Shown piece by piece: positions 6,840 to 46,584 of a stretch of 64,000 bases of DNA. Where the stretch lies: contig CAMWKZ010000011.1 in assembly GCA_947174945.1 (NCBI GenBank), forward strand, positions 4,374 through 68,373, given 5' to 3'. Under the pieces are notes generated by a model. The model did no database searches, had not been told where the DNA came from, and worked only from the letters and a program-made list of their open reading frames with translations. Origin of the DNA: an uncultured Prevotellaceae bacterium. Lineage in GTDB: Bacteria; Bacteroidota; Bacteroidia; Bacteroidales; Bacteroidaceae. The position numbers and the translations under genes are program-made. Position 1 is the stretch's first letter; the number at the start of each line of letters is the position of its first letter.

Positions 6840-6876
6840 CCAGATGGAGGAGTCAGCGGATTTTCGGTGCATATCA

Positions 6877-6986
6877 TGCGGAGCCCATCGGCACACGGTG
6901 CGGAGCGTATCGGTGCATGGTGCGGAGCGTGTCGGCACATGATGCGGAGCGCGTCGGTGCATGGTGCGGATGCGGTCGGCACATGA
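6877..6986. repeat. 22-bp tandem array, family A, copy 1 (5 units; consensus TGCGGAGCGYRTCGGYRCATGR)
   Basis: TGCGGA at 6877, 6899, 6921, 6943 and 6965, plus a degenerate AGCGGA at 6855. Confidence 0.95.
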
Positions 6987-7013
6987 CAAGACCATAGGTT
7001 ATGCACTGGGCAA

Positions 7014-7160
7014 CCCCAGCCCGCCGTTCATCCCTCCTCGTCTGGCCCGGTGACAGCCCCTGTTGTCATGGGGGAGTTGAAGCCTCCCCCTCATATTGGA
7101 GTCCCCCTATAGGGGGACGGAAATATAGAGGGGCTGGGAGACTTCAGCAGGGGGCTGGGG
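7014..7160. repeat. GC-rich nested inverted-repeat element (REP/MITE-like or structured RNA)
   Basis: Stems CCCCAGCCC(7014-22)/GGGCTGGGG(7152-60), CAGCCCCT(7054-61)/AGGGGCTG(7129-36), GGGGGAG(7070-76)/CTCCCCC(7084-90), and the perfect palindrome GTCCCCCTATAGGGGGAC (7101-18). Confidence 0.7.
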
Positions 7161-7196
7161 CGTGGATAGTGCGATTGAAATTGGAGAGTAACAACG

Positions 7197-8186
7197 ATGA
7201 GAATGAGAAAAAGTATTTTATTGATGCTCGTCCTGCTGGCTGCCGTTGTGCAGCTGACAGCCCAGCAAGTAACGCTGACCGAGCAGCGCCACTTTGGCAA
7301 GACCGTGCCTGCGGGCAACTATAGTGGCATTACGTGGCTTGGCGGCAACCGTTATGCAGTGGCTGACGACAAGTCGCCGACAGCCGGATTCCACCTGATG
7401 ACCATCCATATCGATAGTCTGACGGGCGATGTTCTGGATGTGCAGGCCGAAAGGTTTGTGACCAACCAGCAGCCTAACCGCGACGAGGAGGGCATCTGTT
7501 ACGTGCCGCAGTCGAACACCGTGTTCGTCAGTGGCGAGGCCGACGGGCAAATCGTGGAATACAGCATGGACGGCCAGCTGACGGGTCGCCTGCTGACCAT
7601 TCCCGCCGTGTTTGCCACGGCTTATCACAACCGCAGTTTCGAGGCTCTGACCTATAATGCCCAGACGCACCGCTTCTGGACTACCTCGGAGAACACCCTG
7701 CGTGCCGACGGCACGAAACCCAATATCCTCAACAAGGTTGCCAGCAGGCTGCGCCTGCAGAGCTTTGGCGACGACCTGCAGCCATGCGAGCAATACTGGT
7801 ACGTCACCGACTCATCTGCCGTCAAAAGCATTAAGGGAACGACCACACTGGGTGTCAGCGGACTGGCTGCCTTGGACGACGGTCGCCTTGTCGTGCTGGA
7901 GCGCGAGGTGCGCACAACGCCGAAAATCATAGGCTCCTTTGCCCATGTCAGGCTCTACGTTGTCAATCCGGCTATGCACTCCCCCGGCACTTTGCTACAA
8001 AAACAGTTGTTGGCGGAGTTCCGAACGTGTTTCAATCTAACCCGTCGTAACTTCGCCAACTATGAAGGCATCTGCGTAGGTCCTCGTTTGCAGGACGGTC
8101 GGCAAGTCCTCGTGTTACTTGCCGATTCGCAGAATCAATATAAAGGCATCCTAAGAGACTGGTTCAGGACAATCGTCATCCCATAA
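7197..8186 (+). CDS. Secreted 'esterase-like activity of phytase' family beta-propeller protein
   Basis: Signal peptide; repeated blade motifs NYSGITW, DEEGICY, SFEALTY, GVSGLAAL..LVVLER, ANYEGIC..LLADSQ. Confidence 0.75.
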   Translation: MRMRKSILLMLVLLAAVVQLTAQQVTLTEQRHFGKTVPAGNYSGITWLGGNRYAVADDKSPTAGFHLMTIHIDSLTGDVLDVQAERFVTNQQPNRDEEGICYVPQSNTVFVSGEADGQIVEYSMDGQLTGRLLTIPAVFATAYHNRSFEALTYNAQTHRFWTTSENTLRADGTKPNILNKVASRLRLQSFGDDLQPCEQYWYVTDSSAVKSIKGTTTLGVSGLAALDDGRLVVLEREVRTTPKIIGSFAHVRLYVVNPAMHSPGTLLQKQLLAEFRTCFNLTRRNFANYEGICVGPRLQDGRQVLVLLADSQNQYKGILRDWFRTIVIP

Positions 8187-8236
8187 GGGCGCAACGCTGC
8201 AACCGACTGGCATGGCAGCGTTTGTCCGCCGCCAGC

Positions 8237-10069
8237 TTACTCCTTGTTGCGGTTCTCAGCGTCAATGGCCTTGATTTTCTCACGCACCAGCTGCACCTCG
8301 TCCTTCAGCTTCTGCACCTTGCGGTTCATCTCGTCAATGAGTGAGTTGCCCTTCTTCGACGAGGCGTTCAGGAATCCGAGGTTGTTCTCGTAGGTCTGCA
8401 CCTCGCTCTTCAGTTGCTCATACTGGCGCATGAGGCGGGCGCGCTCGTTGTCCAGTGCGTTCTCGCCACGCTCGGCCACCTGACGCAAGTTGTCCTTAAA
8501 CTTGCTGAGACGGCGCTTGGCAACGCTGATGTTCAGGTCTTTGTAGAGCTTGTCAAGCACAGCGTGATATTCCTCGTACAGCTTGTCCTTCTCCTTGAAG
8601 GGCACGTGGCCGATGGACTGATACTCCTCCACCAACTTCTGCACGCGCTCCTGCAGCCCGTCGCCAGCCTCCTCGGCAGCGGCTTTTAACTGTTCAATGA
8701 CGCTGCGTTTCTTGTCTAAGTTCTGGTGCTCCTCGCCTCGCTGACCTACGCCAGCGGCATTGCGGGCCTCAAAGAACTTGTTGCAGGCTCCGAGGAACTC
8801 TTCCCATAGCTGGTCGCCTATCTTCTTGGGCACGGCACCGATGGTCTTCCACTCCTTCTGCAGGTTTATCAGCTTGTCGCTGGTCGACTTCCAGTCGGTA
8901 GAGTCTTGCAGGGCCTTGGCCTTTTCGATAAGGGCGCGCTTCTTCTCTGCATTCTCCTTGAAGCCATCCTTGAGTGCGCGGAAATACTCGGCTTTGCGGG
9001 CGAAGAAGTTGTCGCAGGCGGCGCGGAAACGCTCGAATATCTTGACGTTCATCTTCTGCGGGGCAAATCCGATGGTCTTCCACTCGGTCTGTATCTCGAT
9101 GATTTGCTTGGTGTGACGCTCCCAGTCGCTGCTGCCCTTGTTCTCCTCGGCTGCGATGGCCTCTACTTTCTCGCAGAGGGCGGTCTTCCTTTCAAGGTTT
9201 TCCTCCTCCTTGGCACGCAGTGATTCGAAGTGCTGCTGGTGGCGCTTGTTGATGACGGTCGATGCCGCCTTGAAGCGTCCCCATATCTCTTCGCGCAGCT
9301 CCTTGGCCGTGGGGCCCGTCTCGCGATATTCCTGATGCAGTTTCTGCAACTGGTGGAAGGCACTGATGATGTCAGTCTCCTCGGCCAGCTTCTCGGCAGC
9401 CTCGCACAGTTTCGTCTTCAGTTCCAAGTTCTTCTTGAAGTCGTATTCACGTGCTTCGCTGTTCAGTTTCAGCAGGTCATAGAACTGCTCCACATAAAGC
9501 TGATAGTTGCGCCACAGTTCGTTGGCACGCTCGGCGGGCACGTTCTTGATTTCCTTCCACTCGTCTTGCAGTGCCTTAAACTCCTTGTATGACTTGTTGG
9601 CATCCTCGGGAGAGGTCAGCATCGACTTGATTTTCTCGATGATGTCGAGCTTCTTCTGCAGGTTCTCCTGCTTCTCCTGCTCTTGCTCTCTGAACAGCTT
9701 CTGGCGTCTTTCCTTGATAATGCCCATCTCGGCCTTGAATGCCTCCTCGTCGGGGTCAGGTCTGAGCTGGTACTGTTCAGGGTCGCCGCCGCCGTCGGTG
9801 TATTCCTTGAACTCGGCTTCGCGCTCTGCCAAGTGCATCTTGTAGAATACCATCTTTAGGTAGTCTACCTCGTCCTTCTTGGGAGCCTCGTCGCTGTGAG
9901 CTATCTCGCGCACGCGCTCCAGCACTTCCTTCTTGGTTTGATACTGCTTGCGCTCAGGCTCGTTGCCTTCAGCCACGGGCTGCTCGGCCTCGGCTGCTGC
10001 GGTTTCCACTACGTCTTGTCCTACGTTCTGCTCCTCGATGGGAGCTTTTTCTTGAGAGTCCATCATCAA
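8237..10069 (-). CDS. DUF349 repeat coiled-coil protein
   Basis: Repeated ENL.KK..L.E...LQ.EWK.IG.VP......LW.RF..A.D.FF units. Confidence 0.9.
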   Translation of the reverse strand: MMMDSQEKAPIEEQNVGQDVVETAAAEAEQPVAEGNEPERKQYQTKKEVLERVREIAHSDEAPKKDEVDYLKMVFYKMHLAEREAEFKEYTDGGGDPEQYQLRPDPDEEAFKAEMGIIKERRQKLFREQEQEKQENLQKKLDIIEKIKSMLTSPEDANKSYKEFKALQDEWKEIKNVPAERANELWRNYQLYVEQFYDLLKLNSEAREYDFKKNLELKTKLCEAAEKLAEETDIISAFHQLQKLHQEYRETGPTAKELREEIWGRFKAASTVINKRHQQHFESLRAKEEENLERKTALCEKVEAIAAEENKGSSDWERHTKQIIEIQTEWKTIGFAPQKMNVKIFERFRAACDNFFARKAEYFRALKDGFKENAEKKRALIEKAKALQDSTDWKSTSDKLINLQKEWKTIGAVPKKIGDQLWEEFLGACNKFFEARNAAGVGQRGEEHQNLDKKRSVIEQLKAAAEEAGDGLQERVQKLVEEYQSIGHVPFKEKDKLYEEYHAVLDKLYKDLNISVAKRRLSKFKDNLRQVAERGENALDNERARLMRQYEQLKSEVQTYENNLGFLNASSKKGNSLIDEMNRKVQKLKDEVQLVREKIKAIDAENRNKE

Positions 10070-10166
10070 TAAAGTTTAGTGAATGAAATGGTTAGTATAC
10101 ACAAAATCAGGCTTCAAAGTTAAGTAAAAAAACTGAAACCGCCTAATCTTTTTCAAGAAAAGTGCG

Positions 10167-11093
10167 TTAAATCAGTCGTTTGTGCTTGAAAATGAGCAGT
10201 GAGACCACCGAAATGGCTACCGAAAGGATGATGGCAATGCCAAAGCCTACGGGGCTGTCCTCCATGCCGTTGACAAGGTTCATGCCAAAGAAGGAGGCCA
10301 CCAGCGTGGGCAACATCAGGATGATGGTCACCGAGGTCAGTGTACGCATGATGGTGTTCATGTTGTTGTTGATGATGCTCTGGTAGGTGTCCATCGTCGA
10401 CTCTAAGATGTTCGAGTAGATGCTGGTCGTCTCGCGGGCCTGTGTCATCTCAATGTTCACGTCCTCGATAAGGTCGGCATCCAGCTCGTCAATCTGCAGT
10501 TTGAACTTCAGCTTCGACATCAGCACCTCGTTGCCTCTGATGGATGTGTTGAAGTAAGTCAGCGAGTCTTGCAGTCTCGACAGTCCTATCAGCGACTCGT
10601 TGTTCACTTCGCGGTCTAAGTTTCGCTTGGCCTTGTCAATGAGCATTGATATTTGCTTCAGGCGTTTCAGATACCAGATGGCACTCGACAGGAAGAGGCG
10701 GAAAATCATGTCCACGTAGTCGGTGAAGCCTACGCCCCGCTTCTGCTGGAACGATACGAAGTCTATCATCATGTTCGTTTCGTAATAGCAGACGGTGATG
10801 GTCACGTCGCGCTTATGGATGATGCCTAACGGCACAGTAGTGTAGGGCGTGCGCGAGCGCACTTCCTTGACGTAGGGAATACGCAGGATGATGAGCATCC
10901 ATCCGTCATCGTACTCATAACGGGCCCGCTCGTCAGCATCGCTGATGTCGGAAAGGAAGTAGTCGGGTATCTGATACTGCTCTTCCAGCAACTGCTGGTC
11001 TTCTTCTGTCGGACACGTAACCTGTATCCAGCAATTAGGCTGCCACTCATTGAGCTGGCTGAGCCCACCTTGGGTGTTCCAGTAAGTCTTCAT
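10167..11093 (-). CDS. corA: CorA family Mg2+/Co2+ transporter
   Basis: C-terminal PTLVASFFGMN signature followed by a second TM; N-terminal WIQVTCPT and DERARYE motifs. Confidence 0.93.
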   Translation of the reverse strand: MKTYWNTQGGLSQLNEWQPNCWIQVTCPTEEDQQLLEEQYQIPDYFLSDISDADERARYEYDDGWMLIILRIPYVKEVRSRTPYTTVPLGIIHKRDVTITVCYYETNMMIDFVSFQQKRGVGFTDYVDMIFRLFLSSAIWYLKRLKQISMLIDKAKRNLDREVNNESLIGLSRLQDSLTYFNTSIRGNEVLMSKLKFKLQIDELDADLIEDVNIEMTQARETTSIYSNILESTMDTYQSIINNNMNTIMRTLTSVTIILMLPTLVASFFGMNLVNGMEDSPVGFGIAIILSVAISVVSLLIFKHKRLI

Positions 11094-11168
11094 TTGCTAA
11101 TCCTTTTTAAGAATAAACGGTCTTAGCGGCAAAGGGATTAGCAGCCTTGCCACCTTATATCCCCTGCC

Positions 11169-11204
11169 TTACGAATTGTTATTATCCGCCGGGTAGTCGT
11201 CCAT
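11169..11204 (-). CDS. Candidate 11-aa leader peptide (MDDYPADNNNS) in the corA 5' UTR
   Basis: ATG GAC GAC TAC CCG GCG GAT AAT AAC AAT TCG TAA, preceded by A-rich sequence and lying between the corA promoter and the corA start. Confidence 0.45.
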   Translation of the reverse strand: MDDYPADNNNS

Positions 11205-11234
11205 TTTGATGTTACTATTTTGGTTATTTGGCTG

Positions 11235-11242
11235 CAAAGGTA
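11235..11242 (-). promoter_or_regulatory. sigmaA -7 box (TACCTTTG) for corA, implying a ~135-nt leader
   Basis: caaaggta on the + strand. Confidence 0.75.
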
Positions 11243-11286
11243 CAAATAAAAATGGTAAATGAGAAATGAATAAAGAGAATTTTTCG

Positions 11287-11294
11287 TAATTTTG
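11287..11294 (+). promoter_or_regulatory. sigmaA -7 box (TAATTTTG) for rmuC
   Basis: Consensus match ending 5 nt before the ATG at 11300. Confidence 0.7.
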
Positions 11295-11299
11295 CACCC

Positions 11300-13073: not shown

Positions 13074-13080
13074 AAAGTTG

Positions 13081-13088
13081 TATCTTTG
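13081..13088 (+). promoter_or_regulatory. sigmaA -7 box (TATCTTTG) for the ypfJ-like-surE-lpxB run
   Basis: Consensus match 33 nt upstream of the ATG at 13122. Confidence 0.65.
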
Positions 13089-13121
13089 TGCAGGAAATCA
13101 TAACAGTAAAACAATAGAACT

Positions 13122-13994: not shown

Positions 13995-14004
13995 CACATA
14001 AGAA

Positions 14005-15973: not shown

Positions 15974-15981
15974 TACCTTTG
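15974..15981 (+). promoter_or_regulatory. sigmaA -7 box (TACCTTTG) with no protein gene downstream
   Basis: ATGCTGTACCTTTGCA, identical to the context of the tRNA-Gln(CTG) promoter at 6691-6706. Confidence 0.75.
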
Positions 15982-15985
15982 CAAC

Positions 15986-16115
15986 ATCAAATGAAAGATG
16001 CCACCTTGGAGGCGACCAATAAAGTAAGATTTGTTTTAGTAGTAATATCATTAGTAGTTTGTTTTGTTGCTTCAAAGCCTGCCGGAAAGCGTTCCAGCAG
16101 GCTTGAAGTTTTTTT
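15986..16115 (+). ncRNA. Candidate stand-alone small RNA (~130 nt)
   Basis: Has its own promoter, a short 5' hairpin, an AU/U-rich middle (AAAGTAAGATTTGTTTTAGTAGT...TTAGTAGTTTGTTTTGTTG), and a strong terminator CTTCAAAGCCTGCCGGAA-AGCG-TTCCAGCAGGCTTGAAG-T7. Confidence 0.65.
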
Positions 16116-16145
16116 ATGCCATGTGGCTTCTAAGGGGGCACATTG

Positions 16146-16273
16146 TGCGGAGCCTATCGGCACACGATGCGGAGTGCGTCGGCACATGGTGCGGAGCGTG
16201 TCCGTGCATGATGCGGAGCGCGTCCGTGCATGGTGCGAAGCGTGTCGGCACATAGTGCGAAGCGCATCGGCAC
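16146..16273. repeat. 22-bp tandem array, family A, copy 2 (6 units)
   Basis: TGCG(G/A)AG at 16146, 16168, 16190, 16212, 16234 and 16256. Confidence 0.95.
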
Positions 16274-16295: not shown

Positions 16296-16346
16296 AAAAA
16301 ACATCCTACCGTTCCTTCGTCAAAGGTACGGTAGGATGCTTTGTTT
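16296..16346 (-). terminator. Intrinsic (possibly bidirectional) terminator of the korA-korB-DASS operon
   Basis: CATCCTACCGT...ACGGTAGGATG stem flanked by an A6 run on the left and T-rich sequence on the right. Confidence 0.8.
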
Positions 16347-16362: not shown

Positions 16363-17868
16363 TTAGATAACGTGCAGGACGCCCATCAGGTAGACGAGCC
16401 CGAAGCCGAGCACCATAGAGATGAAACCTACGATGGTACCAACCTTCGACATATCCTTCTGCTGCACGTAGCCAGTGGCGTAGGCCAAGGCGTTGGGCGG
16501 TGTGGATATGGGCAGTATCATGGCACTGGATGCAGCGATGGCCACACCTATCAGTACGGTGGGTGTGCCGCCGATGGGAGCCAGCTTGTCGCCCATAGCG
16601 CCGCATACTATTGCCAAGATGGGCATGAGTAGGGCTGCCGTGGCCGAGTTGGATATAAAGTTAGACAGCAGGTAGCAGATGGCTCCGCCCAACAGCAGGA
16701 TGAGCAGGGGCGAGAACTCGCCGAAGGGTATGCTCTGCACCGCGTTGGCGGCCAGCCCCGATGCGTTGAGGCCGTAGCCCAGTGCAAAACCGCCTGCAAC
16801 CATCCAGATGACCGACCAGTTGATTTGCTCCAAGTCGCGCTTGGTGATAACTCCCGTCAGTGCGAACACCATGAACGGTATCAGGGCCACGGTGTAGGAG
16901 TTGATGCCCGTCAGACGGTCAAACAGCCACAGGCCCACGGTGACGAAGAAGGTCACGATGACGATGTAGGAGTGGGCATCGTGCTTCATCTCGCTGTCGA
17001 TGTGCAGCTCAATAGTCTTCTGGCTGAAGGGGAACATCTTCAGCAGGATGCGCCAGCTGATGAACAGCAGGACAATAACCAGCGGGAACATGAAGAGCAT
17101 CCACTGGCCGAAGCCCAGTCCGAGGTTCAGACCCTCGGGGTCGTTCAGATACTTCAGTGCGATGGTGTTCGGCGGGGTACCGATAGGCGTACCCATGCCG
17201 CCCAAGTTGGCAGCCACGGGAATCGACATGGCCAGTGCCATGCGGCCCTTGCCCTCAGGGGGCAGCTGGTGGAACACGGGGGTGAGGAACGTCAGCATCA
17301 TGGCTGCCGTAGCCGTGTTGGACACGAACATCGAGAACAGGCCCGTGATGAGCAGGAAACCCAGCAGCACCATCTCGCTGCGAGTGCCAAAGGGGCGCAG
17401 CAGTACCTTGGCCAGCTGGGCGTCAAGCCCCGTCTTTGTGGCCGCGATGGCCAGCACGAAGCCGCCAATGAACAGCATGTTAACGGGGTCGGCAAACGAG
17501 GCCATCACCTCTTTGTACGATAGCAGCTTGCCCACTTCCTCTTTGTTCACCATCGGGGTAAAGCCGCTGTCCGTGCAGAATAGCAGCATCATGACGATAA
17601 TGGCTACCGACGTGGCCCATGAGGGTACTATCTCCATAATCCACATCAGCGTGGCGAAGGCGAAGATGGCAATGATGCGCTGCTGTACGACCGTGAGCTC
17701 CTGAATGCCGTACCACTCGGCAGGCATATTCCAGAGCGCCAGCGTCGCCAGTATAACGATAGCTATCTTGATAAAGCGCATCATCGCGTTGGATGGATGA
17801 TACTTGCGCATGTGTCGTAAGTCGTGGTACGACTGTACGAGGTGGAATCCTTTATAATTATTGAACAT
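16363..17868 (-). CDS. SLC13/DASS family di-/tricarboxylate (or sulfate) transporter
   Basis: Two SNT-type motifs (FVSNTAT, FISNSAT), TPIGTPPN and PISTPPNA; many TM segments. Confidence 0.93.
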   Translation of the reverse strand: MFNNYKGFHLVQSYHDLRHMRKYHPSNAMMRFIKIAIVILATLALWNMPAEWYGIQELTVVQQRIIAIFAFATLMWIMEIVPSWATSVAIIVMMLLFCTDSGFTPMVNKEEVGKLLSYKEVMASFADPVNMLFIGGFVLAIAATKTGLDAQLAKVLLRPFGTRSEMVLLGFLLITGLFSMFVSNTATAAMMLTFLTPVFHQLPPEGKGRMALAMSIPVAANLGGMGTPIGTPPNTIALKYLNDPEGLNLGLGFGQWMLFMFPLVIVLLFISWRILLKMFPFSQKTIELHIDSEMKHDAHSYIVIVTFFVTVGLWLFDRLTGINSYTVALIPFMVFALTGVITKRDLEQINWSVIWMVAGGFALGYGLNASGLAANAVQSIPFGEFSPLLILLLGGAICYLLSNFISNSATAALLMPILAIVCGAMGDKLAPIGGTPTVLIGVAIAASSAMILPISTPPNALAYATGYVQQKDMSKVGTIVGFISMVLGFGLVYLMGVLHVI

Positions 17869-27745: not shown

Positions 27746-29314
27746 ATGAAGATGAAATATTCTATATTGTCCGTTATAACGCTTCTTTCAGCAGTGTTTA
27801 CGGGCTGTTCGGATGATAATGATGCTGTATATCTTAATGAGGTTCAGGTATCATCATCGTATGTGGCCATTCCTGTAGGTGGTGGCAGTGAGACGATAAC
27901 GTTGAGAGCTTCCGACAACTGGGAGTTTGACAAAGTGTTCCAGAAGATTGTACAGAAGGAGGATGGAACCAAAGACACCATCTATACGGAGACTCCCGAC
28001 TGGCTTACTGTAAGCCAGGTTTCGGGCGGTGCTGGCGAGACGGAGCTTGTCTTCCATGCCGAGGCTGCGCTTGATGGCCGTTCTACCGAGCTTCAGCTCT
28101 CATGCGGAGGCCAGACACAGCTCATAAACGTAATTCAGGGACTGGCCACAGTGTCGGAAGCAACGTGTGCTGAGGTTATTGCCGGCCCAGACAGCAAGAC
28201 CTATATGGTTAAGGGTACCGTTACGGCTATAGCCAACACGGTGTACGGAAACTGGTATCTTGCCGACGAGACAGGCCAGATATATATCTACGGTACACTC
28301 GACAAGTCAGGTGCCGAGAAGAACTTCGCCAGCCTTGGAATCGAAGTTGGCGACATCGTTACCGTGCAGGGCCCGAAGACGACCTACGGTACCACCGTTG
28401 AGCTGGTAAATGTTACGGTGGTGAAAATCGAGAAGTCGCTTATTAAGGTTGACTCGCTGAGCGTTGACGACGCTACGTTGCCTGTAGAGGGTGGAGACAT
28501 TAAGTTCTATCTGACGTGCAAGGGCGATGGTGTTTACGCTGACATTCCAGAGGCTGCCAAGGATTGGCTCTCTATCGCGTCGGTTACCGGCGGCAGCGTT
28601 CCTACTGTCACTTTCCGCGCCGCACCTAACACAGGTGGCGACAGGTCGGCAACGGTAACGCTGAAGACGATGCAGAAGGGCAAGGAGTATACTGCTGAGA
28701 CAACGATATATCAGAAAGGCGCAATCGTAGCGTGCAGCATTGCCGACTTCTTGGCTGCCGCAGTTGGCGACACTCAGTACCGCCTGACGGGTGTCATTAC
28801 CAACGTGGCTAAGGCAGAGTATGGCAATATCTACATCCGTGATTACTCTGGCGAGGCATACGTCTATGGTGTCGGTGCCAAGGGCGACTTCGAGAAGCTG
28901 GGCCTGAAGGAAGGCGACATCGTGACGCTGCTGGGCAAGCGCGGTGAGTACAAGGGTGCGGCCCAGATGACGGGCGGTGTTTACGAGAGCAGTTTCTCCG
29001 TTACCGAGGTGACGCTCGACGAGTTCCTGACCAAGGCTGATGCTACCGATGTGTACTACAAGGTGACGGGAACGGTTGACGAGGTAGCCAATGCTACCTA
29101 CGGTAACCTGTACCTGAAGAGTGGCGACACCCGCCTCTACGTCTACGGATGCTATCCCGGATGGGGTGCTACGGGCGATTTCCGCAAGAACTGTCTGGCA
29201 GACAAGGATATTGCCGTGGGCGACGAACTGACGGTTATCGGTGTGAAGTCCACCTACAATGGCACTCCGCAGGTGAACGGCGGTCTGTATTTCTCACACA
29301 AGAAGGCAGAGTAA
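27746..29314 (+). CDS. Surface lipoprotein with two BACON-like domains and three OB-fold-like repeats
   Basis: Lipobox FTGC followed by acidic SDDND; BACON-like ..DWL.V/I..R....L; three repeats of Y.V.G.V..VA...YGN.YL.D..G..Y.YG...GD.VTV.G. Confidence 0.75.
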   Translation: MKMKYSILSVITLLSAVFTGCSDDNDAVYLNEVQVSSSYVAIPVGGGSETITLRASDNWEFDKVFQKIVQKEDGTKDTIYTETPDWLTVSQVSGGAGETELVFHAEAALDGRSTELQLSCGGQTQLINVIQGLATVSEATCAEVIAGPDSKTYMVKGTVTAIANTVYGNWYLADETGQIYIYGTLDKSGAEKNFASLGIEVGDIVTVQGPKTTYGTTVELVNVTVVKIEKSLIKVDSLSVDDATLPVEGGDIKFYLTCKGDGVYADIPEAAKDWLSIASVTGGSVPTVTFRAAPNTGGDRSATVTLKTMQKGKEYTAETTIYQKGAIVACSIADFLAAAVGDTQYRLTGVITNVAKAEYGNIYIRDYSGEAYVYGVGAKGDFEKLGLKEGDIVTLLGKRGEYKGAAQMTGGVYESSFSVTEVTLDEFLTKADATDVYYKVTGTVDEVANATYGNLYLKSGDTRLYVYGCYPGWGATGDFRKNCLADKDIAVGDELTVIGVKSTYNGTPQVNGGLYFSHKKAE

Positions 29315-29334: not shown

Positions 29335-29372
29335 GAAGGTGTCCCGGTCATCGTGCTGGGACACCTTTTTTA
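29335..29372 (+). terminator. Intrinsic terminator
   Basis: GAAGGTGTCCCGG...CTGGGACACCTT followed by a T run. Confidence 0.85.
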
Positions 29373-29399
29373 TATGTGCCTGTCAGTGGGCTGTTTAAG

Positions 29400-29509
29400 G
29401 GTAAGAACCAGCCCTTCTTTTGGAGGGAACCGACCCCTCTCGTGGAAAGAACGGTTCTTTCTCATAGTTTGAGCCGTTCTTTCTCGTGGTAAGAACCGTT
29501 CTTTCCCCA
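29400..29509. repeat. 22-bp tandem array, family B, copy 1 (5 units; consensus GGWAAGAACCGTTCTTTCTCGT, palindromic core)
   Basis: GAAC/GAGC at 29405, 29427, 29449, 29471 and 29493. Confidence 0.88.
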
Positions 29510-37737: not shown

Positions 37738-37870
37738 CCCAAAGAAGTCCATCTACCCATAGGTTTTAGGACTTTTATCTAAAAAATATGGGGTATGTAA
37801 TGCTAAGTGGGACTTTTTTTTGTTTATTATAACATCTAATACAATACAATCACTTTAACAACAAATGCTT

Positions 37871-40576
37871 ATGAAGAAGATTTTTACTTTGGCAGTGCTT
37901 TCCCTGCTTGCAGTGGGGGGGGCAAAAGCGCAAGGGCTTCGCAAGACGTGGGACTTCCGTGAGGGGTTCAGCTCGAAGACCGTTAATGCGTTGAAGGCCG
38001 ACCAGGAAGAGTTTGGCCCTAACAAGTATTGGCGTAACTATGAGGGTGATGCCAATAAGGCTGACGACCAGCACTTCTGGAACGCCAGTGGAGAAATAAA
38101 GAACTCTAACGGCTTTGCCTGTACCCACAATGGTGGCATGGAGAAGGTTATTGACGAGCTTGACGGCCTGAAGTTAGGTGTATCAGCCGCCAAGAAGTTT
38201 GTGATTACCTACGATGGTGCCCAGAAGCCAAACGAGTATGCCGATGGCGGTCTTGCCGTAGGCGAGATGGTGCCTCACGGCAAGAGCTATCTCTGGCTGA
38301 ACGGTGGTAGTGAAACGATTAGCTTTGAGGCTGAGGTAGGACAGACGATTAAGATTGCCGTTGAGTCTCACGCCGTGAATACCACTTCCCTTGGTCAAGC
38401 CCGTGGTATCTCGTTGACGGCTGCTGGCGGTACGCTGACCCCGAAGTTTGAGGGCAATCCCGTGCCGACTTACTACACCGAATACGAGTGGGACCTGACT
38501 GGCGATGCAGGTGCAAAGGCTACCCTGACCATAAAAACAACCAGCGGTTGCCACATCTACTACATCATCGTAGGTGAAGGCGACGACCCCAACGCCAACA
38601 AGATTCCCGTGGCTTACCTGACAGATGGCGACGCCACTCAGGAGGCTGCTTACCAGAAGTTAGCTGCTAACGAGAGCTATAACGTGAAAGCCGTAGACGC
38701 TGCTTCAGTAACGGCTGACGACCTGAAGGGCAACACCGTGACGGTGGTTAGTCCTACGCTGGCTGTTACCAGCCCAGTGGTAGCTATTCTGAAGGAGGTG
38801 ATGCCTTTCACTCCCGTTCTGAACATGAACGCTGACCTCTATGCCGTATGGGGCTATGGTGAGAAAACTACCATCGAAGACCGCGGTGCTCTCGTTGGTC
38901 TGCCCAAGCACAGCCTGTTGTCGGGCATTGAGCAGATAGAGATTGATGAAGACCAGTCTATCGTTCTGCTGAGCAACAGCAGCTATACCGCTGTGAAGCT
39001 GGGCGACTACTTCAAGGACGATGAGCTTGTGGCATACGGTGAGGAGGACGAGACGCAGATTGCCGTTCACGCCCATAACACCTTCCACAATGCTTACGTG
39101 TACATTCCCGCCGAGTCAATGGACAAGGTTCCTCAGTTGCTGGATAATGCCATTGAGCTGCTGAAGGACTCGAAGGCTGAGGTTACTCAGGTTTCTGCTC
39201 CGAAGATTACTATGGAGTATAAGGACCAGAACACCAACATCGCACTGGCTATGGCAGTGTCTAACCTGCCCAAGTCCCATATTTACTATACGCTTGACGG
39301 CACTGACCCGACGACGGAAAGTGCTGAATATACCGAGCCTCTCAACGTGACATCGGCTTGCACCGTTAAGGCTGTTGCCATTGCTGAGGGTTATCTGCTC
39401 AGCGAGGTTGCCTCTGCTGACGTTGAAATCTTTGCCCAGCCCGCAACTCCGACCATCGGCAAGAACCTCGAGAGTGGCAAGACCACTGTTACGCTGGCCT
39501 GCGAGACTGAGGGTGTAGACCTTTGGTACAACTATCAGGAGAGCAACGACACCGTGAAGTCGATGAAGTACACGGAGCCGCTGGTCATGACTGCTCCCAC
39601 CACGCTGACCGCTTTTGCCGTGGTGAACGGACAGGTGTTCTCTGAGCTGGCTACCGAGCGTATCGTGATTAAGGATGCCGTTGTACGTCAGGACGTGGTT
39701 GCCCACTTTGACGCTAACACCGATGAGTGGGGTACGAATTATAAGGGTGAAACCGGCAGCAATGTTTATCACTTTAGTTGGGGAAAGAAGGCTGCATCTA
39801 TCTATGACACGACCAAGGACCCCATTGACACGAAGGAAGACCCTGAGACAGGCGATGTGACCTACGTTTATCCCGAGAAGGACTACGAGTATTGGGTACC
39901 GTCTGCCGAGAGCGCATGGGAACTGAAGTCTAAGGGACAGGTCATGATTTACCAGCTACTCTCTGTGGGTAGTGACCCTGGTAATGATACTGGCTATAAT
40001 CCTGAGACCACAGGTGATATCATCGCATACGCTCCTATCACTAAGACTGCTATCCAGTTTGGTGGCAAGACCAGTGGCGAGCGCTGCACGGGTGCTATCC
40101 AGTCGCGCGTTAAGTTCAAGGCTCCGTTCGACCTCGTTGCCTACGTCGGTACAGCTGCTGGTGGTAGCAATGTCGGCAGAATGCAGCTGCAGGTGTCTAC
40201 CGACAGCTTGGAGTGGACTAATGTAGGTGACGTGATGGTGACTTCTACCGTGAAGCGCCTCTGGAAGGGCTATGTACGTGGCTACGAAGGCACTGACGAG
40301 GTTTACGTGCGCCTGATTCAGGAGGGCGGCGGTGCCAGCGTACAGATTTACGACATCTATGTGATGAACGACGGCGAGAACTCTGCCGCTCTGAAGCAGC
40401 AGTACGACGAGGAGTACAACGAGTACGTGACCGGCATCCAGAACGTCACCGACCAGAAGGCCAAGGTGATGGAGGGCATCTACAACATCAACGGTATGCG
40501 CCAGCAGTCGCTGCGTCGTGGCTTGAATATCGTTGTGATGGGCGATGGCACCGTGCGTAAGGTCATGGTGAAGTAA
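37871..40576 (+). CDS. Secreted multidomain protein: unknown N-domain, two chitobiase/beta-hexosaminidase-C-terminal (Fn3-associated)-like Ig domains, short T9SS-type tail
   Basis: Signal peptide MKKIFTLAVL..AKA; IYYTLDGTDPT...YTEPL.V...TVKAVA repeats; tail TGIQNV...IYNINGMR...GLNIV...RKVMVK. Alternative start at 37865. Confidence 0.7.
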   Translation: MKKIFTLAVLSLLAVGGAKAQGLRKTWDFREGFSSKTVNALKADQEEFGPNKYWRNYEGDANKADDQHFWNASGEIKNSNGFACTHNGGMEKVIDELDGLKLGVSAAKKFVITYDGAQKPNEYADGGLAVGEMVPHGKSYLWLNGGSETISFEAEVGQTIKIAVESHAVNTTSLGQARGISLTAAGGTLTPKFEGNPVPTYYTEYEWDLTGDAGAKATLTIKTTSGCHIYYIIVGEGDDPNANKIPVAYLTDGDATQEAAYQKLAANESYNVKAVDAASVTADDLKGNTVTVVSPTLAVTSPVVAILKEVMPFTPVLNMNADLYAVWGYGEKTTIEDRGALVGLPKHSLLSGIEQIEIDEDQSIVLLSNSSYTAVKLGDYFKDDELVAYGEEDETQIAVHAHNTFHNAYVYIPAESMDKVPQLLDNAIELLKDSKAEVTQVSAPKITMEYKDQNTNIALAMAVSNLPKSHIYYTLDGTDPTTESAEYTEPLNVTSACTVKAVAIAEGYLLSEVASADVEIFAQPATPTIGKNLESGKTTVTLACETEGVDLWYNYQESNDTVKSMKYTEPLVMTAPTTLTAFAVVNGQVFSELATERIVIKDAVVRQDVVAHFDANTDEWGTNYKGETGSNVYHFSWGKKAASIYDTTKDPIDTKEDPETGDVTYVYPEKDYEYWVPSAESAWELKSKGQVMIYQLLSVGSDPGNDTGYNPETTGDIIAYAPITKTAIQFGGKTSGERCTGAIQSRVKFKAPFDLVAYVGTAAGGSNVGRMQLQVSTDSLEWTNVGDVMVTSTVKRLWKGYVRGYEGTDEVYVRLIQEGGGASVQIYDIYVMNDGENSAALKQQYDEEYNEYVTGIQNVTDQKAKVMEGIYNINGMRQQSLRRGLNIVVMGDGTVRKVMVK

Positions 40577-40605
40577 GCGACGACAGACACTCGTTTATAA
40601 GAATT

Positions 40606-40640
40606 AGGCTGGAATCCAATACTGGGTTCCAGCCTTTTTT
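40606..40640 (+). terminator. Intrinsic terminator
   Basis: AGGCTGGAATCCA-ATAC-TGGGTTCCAGCCT followed by a T run. Confidence 0.88.
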
Positions 40641-40665
40641 GGTTGTATGCTCCTTGACGGGTTGG

Positions 40666-40753
40666 GGAAGGAACGGTTCTAACCCGTGGAAAGAACCGTT
40701 CTTTCTGGCAGTAAGAACGGCTCTTTCTCAGGGTAAGACCCGTTCTTTCCCAC
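40666..40753. repeat. 22-bp tandem array, family B, copy 2 (4 units)
   Basis: GAAC/GACC at 40671, 40693, 40715 and 40737. Confidence 0.88.
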
Positions 40754-40815
40754 CGTGAGTGCCTGTCTACCCCATAAAAAGCCCCAATTTATTTGCTTTT
40801 TCACTCACTTATTCG

Positions 40816-40823
40816 TACCTTTG
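40816..40823 (+). promoter_or_regulatory. sigmaA -7 box (TACCTTTG) for the PL11-PL1 operon
   Basis: Consensus match with an upstream TTTG, 32 nt before the ATG at 40856. Confidence 0.75.
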
Positions 40824-40855
40824 CCGACGTGACTATTATTAATAATGTACGCAAT

Positions 40856-43153: not shown

Positions 43154-43157
43154 AACC

Positions 43158-46100
43158 ATGAAACTCAAATCAGTAATCATGCTGCTCACGGTGTGTACCA
43201 CCATGAGTGCGCAGCAGTTGGCCTTCCCCGGTGCGCAAGGCTGGGGACGCCATGCCACGGGAGGCCGCACGGGTACGGTCTATCACGTGACCAACCTGAA
43301 CGACTCGGGTGCAGGCTCGCTGCGCGATGCCGTCAGCCAGCCCAACCGTATCGTGGTGTTCGACGTGTCGGGTGTCATCCGCATCACGTCGCGCATCGTG
43401 TTCAAGAACAACCTCTACGTGGCCGGACAGACAGCCCCGGGCGAGGGCATCACCGTCTATGGCGACGGCGTGTCGTTCTCGGGTGCCAACAACATCATCG
43501 TGCGCTATATGCGCTTCCGCATGGGTGCCGTAGGCACTAAGGACAAGGATGCGGGCGGTATTGCCAACGGCCAGAACATGATTTTTGACCACTGTTCGTT
43601 CTCGTGGGGACAGGACGAGAACTTCTCCATCAACTGGGACAACAAGGGAACGGCTCCGCAGAACATCACGCTGATGAACAGCATCGTGGGACAGGGACTG
43701 ATGACCCACTCGGCAGGCGGACTGATGCAGGGCGACCGCATATCGCTCTATCGCATCCTGCTGGTCGACAACTCGACGCGCAACTTCAAGGTGAAGGGCA
43801 CCAACCAGTATGTCAACAACTTAGTGTACAACTGGAAGAATGCGGCCTACAACATGGGCGGCGACTCGGAAGGCACGTCGTATGCTAATATCGAGTCGAA
43901 CTTGTTCATCAACGGGCCAGCCGTGGGCGGCAACTGCCTGACGGGTGGCAACGCCAACTTCCACTTCTATGGCGTTGACAACTGGCAGGACGCCAACCGC
44001 GACGGTGTGTACAACCCCACGGAGTTCACGGGCGACGGCGGTGGCGACCGACAGGCAACACCCTACGACTACCCGGAACTGGAGAAGTGGGCTGCCACCG
44101 ACCTGGTGGAGAAACTGCTGCCCGAGGTGGGAGCCTCGTTGCCTTATCGTGACTTGGCCGACTGCTACATGGTGGACGAAGTGCTGTCGTTTGGCAAGCG
44201 GGGAAACCTGATAACCAACGAGAACGAGCTGCCCATCGGGGTGCCAACGTCGTGGGCATGGTTTAAGGGAGAGAAGCCGACCGACACCGACAACGACGGT
44301 ATGCCCGACGCATGGGAGACGGCTAACGGGCTGAACCCCAACGATGCGGCTGATGCCATGAAGATGGCTGACAACGGCTATACGAACATAGAGAACTACA
44401 TCAACGGCATCACCAAGGCCGACCGCCAGTTCTTCCTGCGCGCACCGATGCTGCTGGAGCTGGCGGGAGCCACGACGAACAGCCTCACCCTGTCGTGGGC
44501 TGACTACTCGGACAATGAGGAAGGGTTTGTTGTTGAGCTGAAGCAGGGCGACGACTTCGTGGAGCTTGGCCGCACGACGGCAACCGCCTTTACTATAGAG
44601 AATGCTGACCTGAAGCCGGCTACCGCCTACGTGGTAAGGGTATGCGCCTATCAGGGCACGCAGAAGTCGGACTACACGCCGGAGCTGACCGTCAAGACCC
44701 GCCCGGAGCAGGTGGACATCATCGACGTGGAGACCTTTAAGGGCAGTGGCGAAGGTGAGTGGCTGATTAACCCGCTGGACGACGAGACCCATACGCTGAC
44801 TGAAGCCACGCCGAAGAAGGCGGTGGTGGTCTACTCCGATGCCCACGTCACCATCAATGGCGACGGCTATATCAGTGGCAGTGCCTCGATGAACAAGGCT
44901 GGCAGCGGTGTGCTCACCATTGCCAGCGACCAGCAATACGAGGGGGCTACCGTGCTGCACGACGGCACCTATGAGTTCTCGTCGCTGAAGGACGGTGGCG
45001 TGGTGAGCGGACTGGGAATGAGTCAGGAGTTTGCCCAGAACTGGGTGTTCGACGGTGGCACGTATCAATACACGGGAGGCTCGACGGCCACTAACCGTTC
45101 GGCTCGCCTGTATAGCGATACGGAACTGAACATTGCTGACCCGAAGGCCGTCGTCACCATGAACGGTGCATTCGATGGGCAGGGCAATCTGCTCATTGGC
45201 GGCGAAGGACAGGTGCTGGTCAATACGGTCGGATTCTTCCAGTATGATGGCAACCTCGTGATGAAGGGCGGCACGCTGAAACTGGCCAACAAGACGGTGT
45301 CTGACAAGGGCATTGGCTCGGCTTCAAAGCTGGTGATGGCTGGTGGTGAGTTTATTACCGTGGGCAAGAACGAGAGCAGCGTTACCTATAACTTCCCTAT
45401 CGAAGCGGTGGCTGGCACTACGTCGACGGTGAACTTCGACCTATGGAATACGAATAAGTGCCGAGTGTCGGGAACGGGCACGCTCATCTGGGATGTCCAT
45501 TACCTGCGCGAGTATATTGAAGGCAACTGGGACGACTTTGCTGGCCAGCTCATTATCAAGGGCACTGGCAAGGCTGGGCAGAGCCAGTTTGCCGTGCGCA
45601 ACGGGGTAGGGGTCAAGAATGCTCCTATCTATCTGAAGGGCAATGCCCAGATTAACGGTGGCAAGAATGCCTCGACGTTCTATCTGGGTGGCTTGTCGGG
45701 CGATGCCGGCACTAAGCTGTCGGGCTTCAACGTGAAGGCTAAGGGTGAAGGAACGTGGGTTGTAGGAACGGCCAACACCAATGAAACCTTCCGTGGCATC
45801 ATTGACAACAACGACCAGGCGGGTACTCATCCCGGTACAACGTCTATCGAGAAGCAAGGCTCCGGCGACTGGCGACTGACGGGTAATAACGTGCATAGCG
45901 GAACGACTGTCGTCACCGCAGGCCGTCTGATTGTCAACGGTCAGCACACGGGAACGGGTGCCGTCACCGTGCGCAAGGGTGCTACGCTGGCTGGCACAGG
46001 TCGTCTGGCTGCCAAGACCACCATCAACGTAGGTGGAACACTGGAGGTGGGCGATACGCTGGCTACCGACAGGGGACTGACTTTCTCAGGCGGATTGCAG

Positions 46101-46445
46101 CTAAATGCGGGTGCCATCCTGAAGCTCAACGAAGCTATGGCCGAGGCTGACCGTCAGGCTGGCGACGAACTGAAAGTCTTTACGGGCACCGTCACGGGTC
46201 AGTTTGCTGAGATTCAGCCTGCCACACCCGGTGAGGGTCTGGAGTGGGACACGTCTGAACTCTACACCAAGGGCATCTTGAAGGTAACGGCCAGCACAGG
46301 CATCCAAGCCGTTGCTGCCGACGACCAGTCAGCTGAATATTATTCACTGAAGGGCGAGAAGGTTGCCACCCCCGGCACAGGCCTCTTTATCAAGAAATCA
46401 ACCACGTCTGACGGCAAGACCGTTGTCCGCAAAATAGTCCGTTAA
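43158..46445 (+). CDS. Pectate lyase PL1-family catalytic domain + Fn3 + autotransporter-associated beta-strand repeats + T9SS-type tail
   Basis: AFPGAQGWG..ATGGR.G.VYHVTNLNDSG.GSLRDA, AGQTAPG, IFDHCSFSWGQDE, DTDNDGMPDAWE; repeats NKAGSGVLTI...YEGATVLHDGT and EKQGSGDWRLTGNNVHSGTTVVTAGRL. Confidence 0.88.
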   Translation: MKLKSVIMLLTVCTTMSAQQLAFPGAQGWGRHATGGRTGTVYHVTNLNDSGAGSLRDAVSQPNRIVVFDVSGVIRITSRIVFKNNLYVAGQTAPGEGITVYGDGVSFSGANNIIVRYMRFRMGAVGTKDKDAGGIANGQNMIFDHCSFSWGQDENFSINWDNKGTAPQNITLMNSIVGQGLMTHSAGGLMQGDRISLYRILLVDNSTRNFKVKGTNQYVNNLVYNWKNAAYNMGGDSEGTSYANIESNLFINGPAVGGNCLTGGNANFHFYGVDNWQDANRDGVYNPTEFTGDGGGDRQATPYDYPELEKWAATDLVEKLLPEVGASLPYRDLADCYMVDEVLSFGKRGNLITNENELPIGVPTSWAWFKGEKPTDTDNDGMPDAWETANGLNPNDAADAMKMADNGYTNIENYINGITKADRQFFLRAPMLLELAGATTNSLTLSWADYSDNEEGFVVELKQGDDFVELGRTTATAFTIENADLKPATAYVVRVCAYQGTQKSDYTPELTVKTRPEQVDIIDVETFKGSGEGEWLINPLDDETHTLTEATPKKAVVVYSDAHVTINGDGYISGSASMNKAGSGVLTIASDQQYEGATVLHDGTYEFSSLKDGGVVSGLGMSQEFAQNWVFDGGTYQYTGGSTATNRSARLYSDTELNIADPKAVVTMNGAFDGQGNLLIGGEGQVLVNTVGFFQYDGNLVMKGGTLKLANKTVSDKGIGSASKLVMAGGEFITVGKNESSVTYNFPIEAVAGTTSTVNFDLWNTNKCRVSGTGTLIWDVHYLREYIEGNWDDFAGQLIIKGTGKAGQSQFAVRNGVGVKNAPIYLKGNAQINGGKNASTFYLGGLSGDAGTKLSGFNVKAKGEGTWVVGTANTNETFRGIIDNNDQAGTHPGTTSIEKQGSGDWRLTGNNVHSGTTVVTAGRLIVNGQHTGTGAVTVRKGATLAGTGRLAAKTTINVGGTLEVGDTLATDRGLTFSGGLQLNAGAILKLNEAMAEADRQAGDELKVFTGTVTGQFAEIQPATPGEGLEWDTSELYTKGILKVTASTGIQAVAADDQSAEYYSLKGEKVATPGTGLFIKKSTTSDGKTVVRKIVR

Positions 46446-46462
46446 AATGACCGTTCAGTCTT

Positions 46463-46584
46463 CAGTATCTCTTTCGGGTAGCCGCAGTATCTCTTTCTGT
46501 CATAAACAGTATCTGTTTATATAGTAAATAGATACTGGAGCACACCGAAGGAGATACTGGAGCAACCCCAAACAGATACTGGAG
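46463..46584. repeat. 22-bp-spaced motif array, family C: 3 direct CAGTATCT + 3 inverted AGATACTG
   Basis: CAGTATCT at 46463, 46485 and 46507; AGATACTG at 46530, 46552 and 46574. Confidence 0.92.

Follow-up and report, generated by a model that had tools for sequence, protein, structure and literature searches.

Dispersed intergenic arrays of 22-bp modules in a rumen Prevotella genome, candidate docking sites for DNA-binding proteins

The window, a 64,000-nucleotide stretch of Prevotella DNA, carries five intergenic repeat arrays, all of which Tandem Repeats Finder (TRF) recovered where a preliminary description had read them, with period 22 and 0–2% indels. A family A array of five TGCGGAGCGYRTCGGYRCATGR units occupies 6877–6986 (TRF 6877–6985, 5.0 copies, 2% indels), 3′ of a tRNA (6726–6796) and its terminator and before the gene at 7197; the hairpin and T-run, resembling an intrinsic terminator, lies on the plus strand at 6810–6840, 37 bp ahead of the array. 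The second family A array (16134–16273; TRF 16137–16273, 6.2 copies, 0% indels) consists of six units with a GGGGGCA end motif first, and is flanked by two convergent terminators. These are a plus-strand hairpin with a U7 run at 16075–16116, about 20 bp before it (−18.7 kcal/mol, z −3.3), and the minus-strand terminator of the convergent gene 16363–17868 at 16296–16340, about 23 bp away (−28.2 kcal/mol, z −7.1).

Two further arrays belong to family B, whose unit is a 19-bp dyad, GGAAAGAACSGTTCTTTCC, plus a 3-bp linker, and both were extended beyond the TRF limits by reading the sequence through degenerate units. The array at 29400–29509 holds five units, the first two degenerate (TRF 29438–29505, 0% indels). 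It begins about 27 bp after the plus-strand terminator (29335–29373; −23.9 kcal/mol, z −5.8) of the gene ending at 29314, has the next promoter-like TAnnTTTG box on its other side, and keeps its length in contigs of strains that are about 97–98% identical. The four-unit array at 40666–40753 (TRF 40691–40753, 0% indels) is likewise followed by a promoter-like box and preceded, by about 21 bp, by the plus-strand terminator of the gene ending at 40576 (40606–40645, also read as 40606–40635; 13-pair stem and T-run).

The fifth array, a family C element at 46463–46584 (TRF 46485–46528 and 46526–46584, 0% indels, and reading of the sequence), is built of three CAGTATCT boxes followed by three inverted AGATACTG boxes, with 22-bp steps throughout; 51 full copies of this element exist, this one included. 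A bidirectional terminator follows about 12 bp later (46598–46637; −25.5 and −32.2 kcal/mol, z about −7.5), which places the element inside the 3′ end of a plus-strand transcript. Word depth over the element reaches 147–199, compared with a level of about 15, and its center is where contigs break. Each of the five arrays thus has a strong hairpin and U-run at 10–40 bp (fold z −3.3 to −7.5). A search of the window against Rfam 15 at gathering score returned two tRNAs and nothing else; none of the arrays matched.

The source genome (G000) is a 2.79-Mb rumen Prevotella metagenome-assembled genome (MAG) of 89% completeness. Merging of TRF rows over the whole genome yielded 199 arrays, one per 14 kb, in line with the genome-wide class and approximate density predicted earlier; all are intergenic, non-coding and dispersed. 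The period histogram comprised 238 TRF rows at 22, 21 at 21 and 3 at 23, and autocorrelation over 592 spacers gave a best lag of 22 in 62 and of 44 in 21, with one spacer each at 21 and 23 (coding control, 1). The excess at period 22 is far beyond chance. The arrays also break short-read assemblies, and 26 of the 199 sit at contig ends.

At least five families can be distinguished, with 59 arrays in A, 49 each in B and C, 15 in D and 9 in E. Families A, B and C are unrelated at 18/22 identity, as first described; that separation gives way at looser linkage, where A chains to B through hybrid units. Sister genomes carry other palindromes, again with period 22. Genome G137 has 54 TRF rows at 22, with other sequences, and 2 at 23, while its 29 rows at 21 are, among those examined, mostly of another kind than the 22-bp arrays; genome G014 has 32 rows at 22. 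The proposal that conservation concerns the period and not the sequence therefore holds across at least five families here and the other palindromes of the sister genomes.

Within a unit, a conserved core of 8–19 bp (1.2–2 bits) alternates with a free linker (0–0.3 bits). Two half-sites of 6–9 bp make up a dyad core in families A, B, D and E, whose whole units form dyads of 14–20 bp; the C core is an asymmetric box of 8–11 bp. The spacing is constant over about 290 unit steps: of 161 family B steps, 155 measure 22 and the other 6 measure 44, and family A steps are only 22, 44 or 66. Within a single array the exact step is partly trivial, a product of in-register duplication. Arrays hold 3–8 units. 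The number of units differs among A and among B arrays, and 17 of 59 A arrays carry the GGGGGCA motif at one end. C and D occur as near-identical dispersed copies of fixed length. The C architecture (−−−+++) is found at 47–51 loci and spans 117/118 bp between its first box and its last; its copies set 3(+1) boxes against 3(+1) inverted boxes, are 90–98% alike, and lose conservation toward the element ends. C and many B arrays are dyads at the level of the whole array. CRISPR was rejected for these loci because units abut with linkers of 3–5 nt and no spacers.

The dyads do not evolve as paired stems. Among 268 B units we found no compensated pairs, all changes being one-sided: stem position 3 reads AT in 114 units, TT in 68, AA in 61 and TA in 5, so that T·T or A·A mismatches affect 48% of units at one stem position, and compensated GC pairs are essentially absent at position 8. 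Arms of C elements show 73% complementarity within a copy versus 76% between copies, and their asymmetry is itself conserved. This absence of compensatory change in the palindromes fits recognition by a protein better than hairpins.

The arrays are also evenly distributed along the chromosome. In G000 the coefficient of variation of the gaps is 0.58, against 0.90–0.95 in null placements, and gaps below 5 kb make up 6.5% against 35% expected (0 of 1,000 nulls). The deficit holds between arrays of different families, where such gaps amount to 3–11% against 34–39% (0 of 1,000). In G137, none of 23 gaps is shorter than 5.3 kb and 15 fall within 7.2–8.9 kb (0 of 2,000), with most gaps in the range L to 2L, where L is about 5.4 kb. 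The global test in G014 did not replicate even spacing (gaps below 5 kb, 23% vs. 29%). Arrays of whatever family thus keep at least about 5 kb apart, at one per roughly 8–10 kb, a new observation that a second species reproduced and a third did not. The earlier suggestion of a role in nucleoid organization or insulation accordingly gains support from G000 and G137 but not from G014.

Terminator adjacency proved less general. The preliminary description had every array sitting beside a terminator, which is true of all five in the window; genome-wide, a terminator-like site lies within 60 bp of 59 of 159 arrays and within 100 bp of 73 (37–46%), versus 45 and 58 of 159 under random placement in the same spacers, so adjacency is a modest enrichment and no rule. 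The median distance is 79 bp to gene 3′ ends and 159 bp to gene starts. The majority are found at 3′ ends or in convergent spacers, about half of the longer convergent spacers being filled, and 29 occupy divergent promoter spacers. Orientation relative to the upstream gene shows no significant strand bias (A 13:5, C 15:7, B 13:12), and the genes flanking arrays in G000 include no recurrent family, neighbors being functionally unrelated.

Comparison of orthologous loci, which the preliminary description had suggested, revealed both an empty site and a length variant. In the sister species G015, the spacer orthologous to 40666–40753 retains a terminator and a promoter without an array, and in the strain of run X3 this array is shorter by exactly 22 nt, one unit. 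A single further species, out of 185,579, carries family B; family C is absent from the five closest relatives, and a search of 72,556 plasmids returned no match. Arrays of different families also nest side by side. The arrays therefore behave as insertions, change length by whole units and belong to lineage-specific families; they are not stable, private features, and some (C and D) are fixed-length, dispersed, MITE-like elements.

A candidate binding protein emerged for one family. The single DUF6078 gene of G000, the only one in a six-frame HMM search of the genome, ends 10 bp before an E array, and among 24 Prevotella DUF6078 loci about 14 carry a palindrome array of period 22/23 at 10–90 bp past the stop codon, each with its own palindrome. 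DUF6078 is not directly followed by an A, B, C or D array in G000, in RGIG9954 or at any of the 24 loci from relatives. Four cysteines and one glycine are the sole invariant residues of the protein, which leaves it without a catalytic signature. Its fold is predicted confidently (pLDDT 92), and the predicted homodimer scores 0.49 against 0.26 for the best of three controls, with contacts agreeing at ≥97% between runs and partner pLDDT ≥89; among proteins of solved structure, 20 of 30 same-chain pairs and 1 of 23 single chains attain this mark. DUF6078 is predicted to be a small, dimeric, four-cysteine zinc protein, and it is the likely candidate reader of E arrays. Copy number and array density do not track each other (G014, no copies and 7 rows per 100 kb; G020, four copies and 1 row). 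For the 190 of 199 arrays outside family E, no reader gene was found in the G000 assembly, although in a MAG of 89% completeness missing genes prove little. No paper in the literature mentions DUF6078.

The closest published relative of the arrays is BrickBuilt, a 23-nt minisatellite MITE of Porphyromonas gingivalis with 19 dispersed intergenic copies, whose head-to-tail, spacer-free repeats have dyad symmetry and vary in number between strains; Rho-independent terminators flank 10 of the 19 (Klein et al. 2015, PMC4596501). The present arrays share with it the Bacteroidales host, intergenic and dispersed placement, near-equal unit length, dyads and strain-variable unit number. They differ in having at least five unrelated families, an exact period of 22, 3–8 units and ten times more copies, in the lack of a definable leader, tail or terminal repeat in A and B, and in even chromosomal spacing, which is unreported for BrickBuilt.

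REP/RAYT systems also include several families per genome, every family having its home cluster adjacent to a particular single-copy gene (Bertels and Rainey 2011, PMC3116915). Like REP, BIME and REPIN sequences, the arrays consist of short, imperfect palindromes scattered over spacers, frequently in clusters and preferentially at gene ends; there are several families, with a home cluster next to a single-copy gene. However, RAYT (Y1 HUH transposase, PF01797) had no match in the 89%-complete assembly while control genomes were positive, and the partner, where present, is DUF6078 with no catalytic signature; REP clusters, moreover, have no fixed 22-bp step and maintain their stems, which the present arrays do not.

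Phased tandem repeats at about two (or four) helical turns are likewise known from iterons and centromeres. R6K and pPS10 iterons are 22 bp long, and the 43-bp sopC repeats of F lie just after sopB, an array directly downstream of its binding-protein gene, as with candidate DUF6078 and its array. Those systems, however, occur once per replicon in an origin or partition cassette, whereas here about 200 copies populate the chromosome, most of them lacking a partner gene, and Rep, ParA and ParB are absent from their surroundings. Several 22-bp sites for transposase binding are also present at the ends of Tn7 and Mu, which show target immunity; they resemble the arrays in their 22-bp modules, in inverted left and right sets (as in family C) and in a kilobase-scale exclusion zone, but here no rve-type transposase is assembled, termini are poorly conserved and exclusion crosses unrelated families.

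These parallels raise the possibility, which we consider real though unlikely, that the arrays are purely selfish MITE-like elements with no host function, in which the modules would be repeated subterminal transposase sites and the 5-kb exclusion would arise from target immunity followed by saturation, as in car parking. The 51 C copies of fixed architecture and high similarity, the fixed D element, the lineage-specific families with an empty orthologous site in G015, the nesting of different families and the L-to-2L gaps of G137 all agree with it, as does BrickBuilt, which joins IS5-like inverted ends to 23-nt internal repeats (PMC4596501). Against it, the assembly lacks rve (Mu, Tn7, IS3, IS21), DDE_Tnp_1 (IS4/IS5) and Y1 transposases, although MAGs often lose such genes; the ends are the least conserved part, with no consistent terminal inverted repeats or target duplications definable, the filled/empty pair being too distant to read one; and A and B vary in unit number with no two defined ends. 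Immunity is also specific to the cognate transposase, yet the exclusion spans unrelated families. Slippage of neutral minisatellites, with the common period a coincidence or a mutational bias, would account for the one-unit strain difference and, through in-register duplication, for a self-maintaining period. It was already disfavored and is highly improbable, since at least five unrelated families, and those of sister species, all settle at 22 and almost never at 20, 21, 23 or 24, and since conserved cores beside free linkers and even spacing would be left unexplained.

REP/BIME-like action as structure, either as RNA stem-loops protecting or ending transcripts or as cruciforms absorbing supercoils or attracting gyrase, would draw on the dyads of units and of whole arrays, on the closeness to 3′ ends and convergent spacers, and on the enrichment of terminators. 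We judge it quite unlikely: the stems lack compensatory changes and tolerate frequent mismatches, the C arms are poorly complementary with conserved asymmetry, orientation is not significantly biased with respect to transcription, 29 arrays lie in divergent promoter spacers, the assembly has neither a RAYT nor an Rfam match for the arrays, and the exact 22-nt step would have no reason. Local operator or enhancer arrays, read by the regulator of a regulon such as polysaccharide utilization loci, could be suspected from the B arrays of the window, which end 60–85 bp upstream of TAnnTTTG boxes, and from the median of 105 bp between B arrays and the next start codon. That account is very improbable given that the same families adjoin functionally unrelated genes with no recurrent neighbor, that 3′ ends and convergent spacers host the majority of arrays, and that the orthologous promoter of G015 works from an array-free spacer.

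Our best explanation, held tentatively and at slightly less than even chances, is that the arrays are small non-coding repeat elements of Prevotella assembled from 22-bp modules, which would serve as docking sites for candidate DNA-binding proteins and possibly as boundary marks. The modules would be bound by sequence-specific dimeric or two-domain proteins lining up every two helical turns, so that protein pitch, rather than DNA sequence, would fix the period; for family E the likely reader is the DUF6078 protein. The phased binding platform proposed earlier thus fits the conserved cores, free linkers, fixed step, lack of compensation and DUF6078 gene before one family, while the search turned up no binding protein for A, B or C. 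To require a separate reader for each of five families within a 2.8-Mb genome would be unparsimonious, and the fixed-length, near-identical C and D copies look like mobile elements. In the most speculative step, bound arrays would act as boundary or insulator marks separating blocks of transcription units, which would explain the mutual avoidance of unrelated families and the preference for gene ends.

A bolder form of this docking-site reading, which we think rather improbable, is that Prevotella chromosomes are split into blocks of about 8–10 kb by interchangeable 22-bp-phased arrays, with common machinery reading period and dyad instead of sequence and setting domain boundaries or insulators; families would turn over fast while the two rulers, 22 bp and about 8–10 kb, stay. 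The combination of a strict 22-bp period across families, family-blind spacing of about 8–10 kb and a candidate reader in DUF6078 is undescribed for REP, BIME, MITE or iteron sequences. In practical terms, unit-number polymorphisms could serve for strain typing. Were the arrays purely selfish, they would illustrate in nature, with unusual clarity, how insertion is excluded over kilobases and how repeat families replace one another under one architectural constraint. Bacteroidales are dominant gut and rumen bacteria, and to our knowledge almost nothing is known of how their chromosomes are organized or insulated. If the arrays are docking platforms, they would provide a sequence-defined handle on chromosome organization or insulation in this order, and the 8–10-kb block reading, if true, would reveal a previously unknown layer of bacterial chromosome organization.

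Tandem Repeats Finder (TRF) analysis of the window recovered five intergenic arrays with a period of 22 bp and indels of only 0-2%, confirming both the shared period and the near-absence of indels claimed in the preliminary description. Assigned by sequence, they represent three unrelated families. Family A, composed of TGCGGAGCGYRTCGGYRCATGR units, occupies 6877-6986 (5 units) and 16146-16273 (6 units), while family B, in which a 19-bp dyad, GGAAAGAACSGTTCTTTCC, is followed by a 3-nt linker, occupies 29400-29509 (5 units) and 40666-40753 (4 units). Family C is represented at 46463-46584 by an element in which three CAGTATCT boxes stand opposite three inverted boxes. Screening of the window against Rfam at the gathering score returned tRNAs as the sole matches.

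To place these arrays in their genomic context, we surveyed the whole assembly (2.79 Mb, 87 contigs, 51% GC), a metagenome-assembled genome (MAG) of 89% completeness in which the window corresponds to C11:4374-68373. TRF returned 238 rows for period 22, compared with 21 for period 21 and 3 for period 23; merging gave 199 arrays totaling 17.7 kb. The resulting density of one per 14 kb bears out the large genome-wide class predicted at about one per 13 kb. Autocorrelation of 592 spacers, a check independent of TRF, likewise revealed an excess at 22 over the neighboring periods, with the best lag being 22 in 62 spacers, 44 in 21, and 21 or 23 in one each. Clustering of the units resolved families A (59 arrays), B (49), C (49), D (15), and E (9), together with 18 others.

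The arrays occupy convergent (51), tandem (79), and divergent (29) intergenic spacers, and are closer to the 3′ ends of genes (median distance 79 bp) than to their starts (159 bp). The only gene families recurring beside them in this genome were generally abundant ones. A further 26 of the 199 arrays are located at contig ends, indicating that they disrupt short-read assembly. Public contigs from three runs all end at the center of the family C element (window 46526-46537), where word depth reaches 10-13 times that of the flanks. The true number of arrays in this genome is probably higher than 199.

The proposal that arrays always sit next to a terminator holds for the window, where a strong hairpin followed by a U-run lies 10-40 bp from every one of the five arrays, and fails genome-wide. 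Using a fold-based terminator finder that recovered six of six window terminators, we detected a terminator within 60 bp of 59 of 159 arrays and within 100 bp of 73 of 159, compared with 45 and 58 under random placement in the same spacer. Relative to the gene end facing the array, the terminator preceded the array 44 times, followed it 34 times, and was not found 103 times. Because of these counts, we regard array-terminator adjacency as a modest enrichment and not a rule. Just before the second family A array, a short ORF-less unit (window 15974-16116) has a strong terminator at its end (fold energy -18.7 kcal/mol, z-score -3.3).

Analysis of unit anatomy revealed strict spacing. Among 268 family B units, steps of 22 bp occurred 155 times and steps of 44 bp six times, with none at 21 or 23; family A steps were exclusively 22, 44, or 66 bp. 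Information content is 1.2-2 bits per position in the cores and 0-0.3 bits in the linkers; together with the fixed steps, this indicates that linkers are substitution-saturated while no indel survives. Within the family B stem, position 3 pairs were AT (114), TT (68), AA (61), and TA (5), and position 8 pairs were AT (105), GT (54), and AC (39), with GC essentially absent. The palindromes are therefore not maintained through compensatory change. Family C forms a fixed element (51 full copies, 117 or 118 bp from first to last box) with an asymmetric, conserved inner spacer and one weak additional unit flanking either side; complementarity between its arms is 73% within a copy versus 76% across copies. 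Orientation relative to the upstream gene showed no significant bias. Collectively, the fixed steps, conserved cores with free linkers, uncompensated stems, family C arms, and unbiased orientation fit sequence-specific recognition by a protein better than hairpins in RNA or DNA.

Family D is likewise a fixed element; it spans about 90-110 bp around TTAAGGGCGGCCGCCCTTAA and is often attached to A-like units, with an A-like array within 100 bp of at least 11 of about 20 copies. Recurrent composite elements were also observed in which a run of CGGAGCGGCTCGGGRAGGGGTA-type 22-bp units precedes D in fixed order (for example C9:906-1180, C51:17965-18240, C40:11396-11610, and C17:166-334, on other contigs of the assembly). 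The motif GGGGGCA was considered as a possible terminal inverted repeat for family A and rejected, because it is confined to a single end and to 17 of the 59 arrays.

In this genome the arrays are also evenly spaced. Across 93-124 inter-array gaps, the median was 10.6 kb, the mode 8-10 kb, and the coefficient of variation (CV) 0.55-0.58, compared with 0.88-0.95 when positions were drawn at random from actual spacers of matching type. Gaps below 5 kb made up 6.5-10% of the total versus 35% expected (0 of 1,000 nulls). This exclusion extends across families: when A, B, and C were each compared with all other arrays, 3-11% lay within 5 kb versus 34-39% expected (0 of 1,000). In Prevotella sp. RGIG9954 (562 kb sampled, 49 arrays), none of 23 gaps was shorter than 5.3 kb and 15 fell within 7.2-8.9 kb, giving a CV of 0.44 against 0.86 for the null (0 of 2,000). 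In another relative, G014 (426 kb, 30 arrays, DUF6078 absent), period 22 was again dominant (32 rows), and the global spacing test was not significant. The cross-family exclusion counts against recombination avoidance and family-specific target immunity. It is compatible with a role common to all families, or with a common machinery that recognizes the architecture.

Comparison of orthologous loci provided evidence of turnover. Between strains about 97-98% identical, the first family B array is unaltered, and the second is shorter by exactly 22 nt in one strain. Synteny with the nearest species, at about 70-82% nucleotide identity, is too broken for most spacers to be compared and yielded one usable filled/empty pair: in G015, a relative, the same two genes are parted by a terminator and a promoter, and the array is absent. 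The two-unit family B pattern, searched among 185,579 species genomes, was confined to Prevotella sp. RGIG9954 and a single occurrence in a Prolixibacteraceae MAG, and no copy of family C was found in the five closest relatives. In the search for "home" copies, IMG/VR phage contigs gave chance matches or none for families A, C, and D, A and C had zero matches in PLSDB plasmids, and A gave 11 chance matches in high-GC DNA and zero arrays in JGI metagenome contigs. RAYT, rve, and DDE_Tnp_1 transposases were absent from the assembly, in which such genes may have been lost given its 89% completeness.

Other kinds of repeat were encountered in the same surveys. The RGIG9954 sample contained 29 TRF rows at period 21, which in its first 258 kb were multiples of 7-mers such as TAACTCC plus a few other repeats, a different kind of array. 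In 80 kb from G030, a member of another family of the order (L042-L045), there were zero period-22 arrays and two tandem arrays of period 42-43 with 95-97% matches (concatenated positions 44032-44118 and 70971-71157).

One protein family, the uncharacterized four-cysteine DUF6078, is physically linked to arrays. The sole DUF6078 gene in the genome (C33:19089-19532, minus strand) is followed by a family E array beginning 10 bp past its stop codon. DUF6078 occurs in 14 of 24 Prevotella genomes (1-7 copies each) and is also present in Bacteroides thetaiotaomicron. At about 14 of 24 Prevotella DUF6078 loci, an array of palindromes with a period of 22 or 23 starts 10-90 bp past the stop, the palindrome being particular to each locus. 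The pairing is real and limited here to family E: no DUF6078 partner for families A-D was found in the assembly, RGIG9954, or the relatives sampled, and array density was unrelated to DUF6078 copy number. In G021, a 36-bp direct repeat (L014:1961-2033; 2.1 copies, 94% matches) containing a GC-rich palindrome, together with an inverted third copy, lies directly past the DUF6078 gene in the place taken at other loci by a 22-bp array; here a 22-bp array is found 140 bp beyond it. Upstream of a DUF6078 gene in G002 (L005:1-1437) are ATCTGTG/CACAGAT-rich tandem repeats of 95-209 bp (3 copies, 79-93% matches), with no relation to the 22-bp arrays.

The only invariant residues of DUF6078 are four cysteines and one glycine. 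Its structure model is confident (pLDDT 92) and had no convincing structural relative in Foldseek against the PDB (best match E 0.66), VIA-align against 48,161 chains (best Z 4.8), or the ESM Atlas, where features and fold retrieved DUF6078 itself only. A likeness of residues 67-140 to Xre/lambda repressor (Z about 4.4) was too weak for use. DUF6078 is predicted to form a symmetric homodimer (score 0.49 versus 0.26 for the best of three controls), with at least 97% contact agreement and pLDDT of at least 89 across runs; among proteins of solved structure, 20 of 30 same-chain pairs and 1 of 23 single chains attain this mark. No papers on DUF6078 were found in the literature searched.

Taken together, the most likely reading, which we hold tentatively and at somewhat short of even confidence, is that the arrays are phased protein-binding modules carried on insertion-prone repeat elements, with a boundary or insulator as the favored possible role. 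Its main rival, in which the arrays are wholly selfish MITE-like elements that show target immunity, could account for the empty site and the wide gaps; we consider it rather unlikely, and exclusion across families argues against immunity of a family-specific kind. A REP-like hairpin function is improbable: the REP/BIME/REPIN-RAYT system (PMC3116915) is analogous in its dispersed repeats, but the RAYT gene and maintained stems, two of its three defining features tested, were not found here. Local operators would be a very improbable explanation for arrays whose only recurrent neighbors are abundant gene families. Neutral slippage, although the loss of exactly 22 nt in one strain resembles it, is the least credible reading, since it leaves unexplained the period shared by unrelated families, the conservation of cores but not of linkers, and the even spacing.

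The closest published element is BrickBuilt of Porphyromonas gingivalis, a 23-nt minisatellite MITE (PMC4596501); no paper on 22-bp intergenic arrays in Prevotella or Bacteroides was found in the literature searched. We file the arrays among dispersed palindromic or minisatellite repeat elements, within which their two as yet unexplained spacings, 22 bp between units and about 8-10 kb between arrays, could prove to mark something new.
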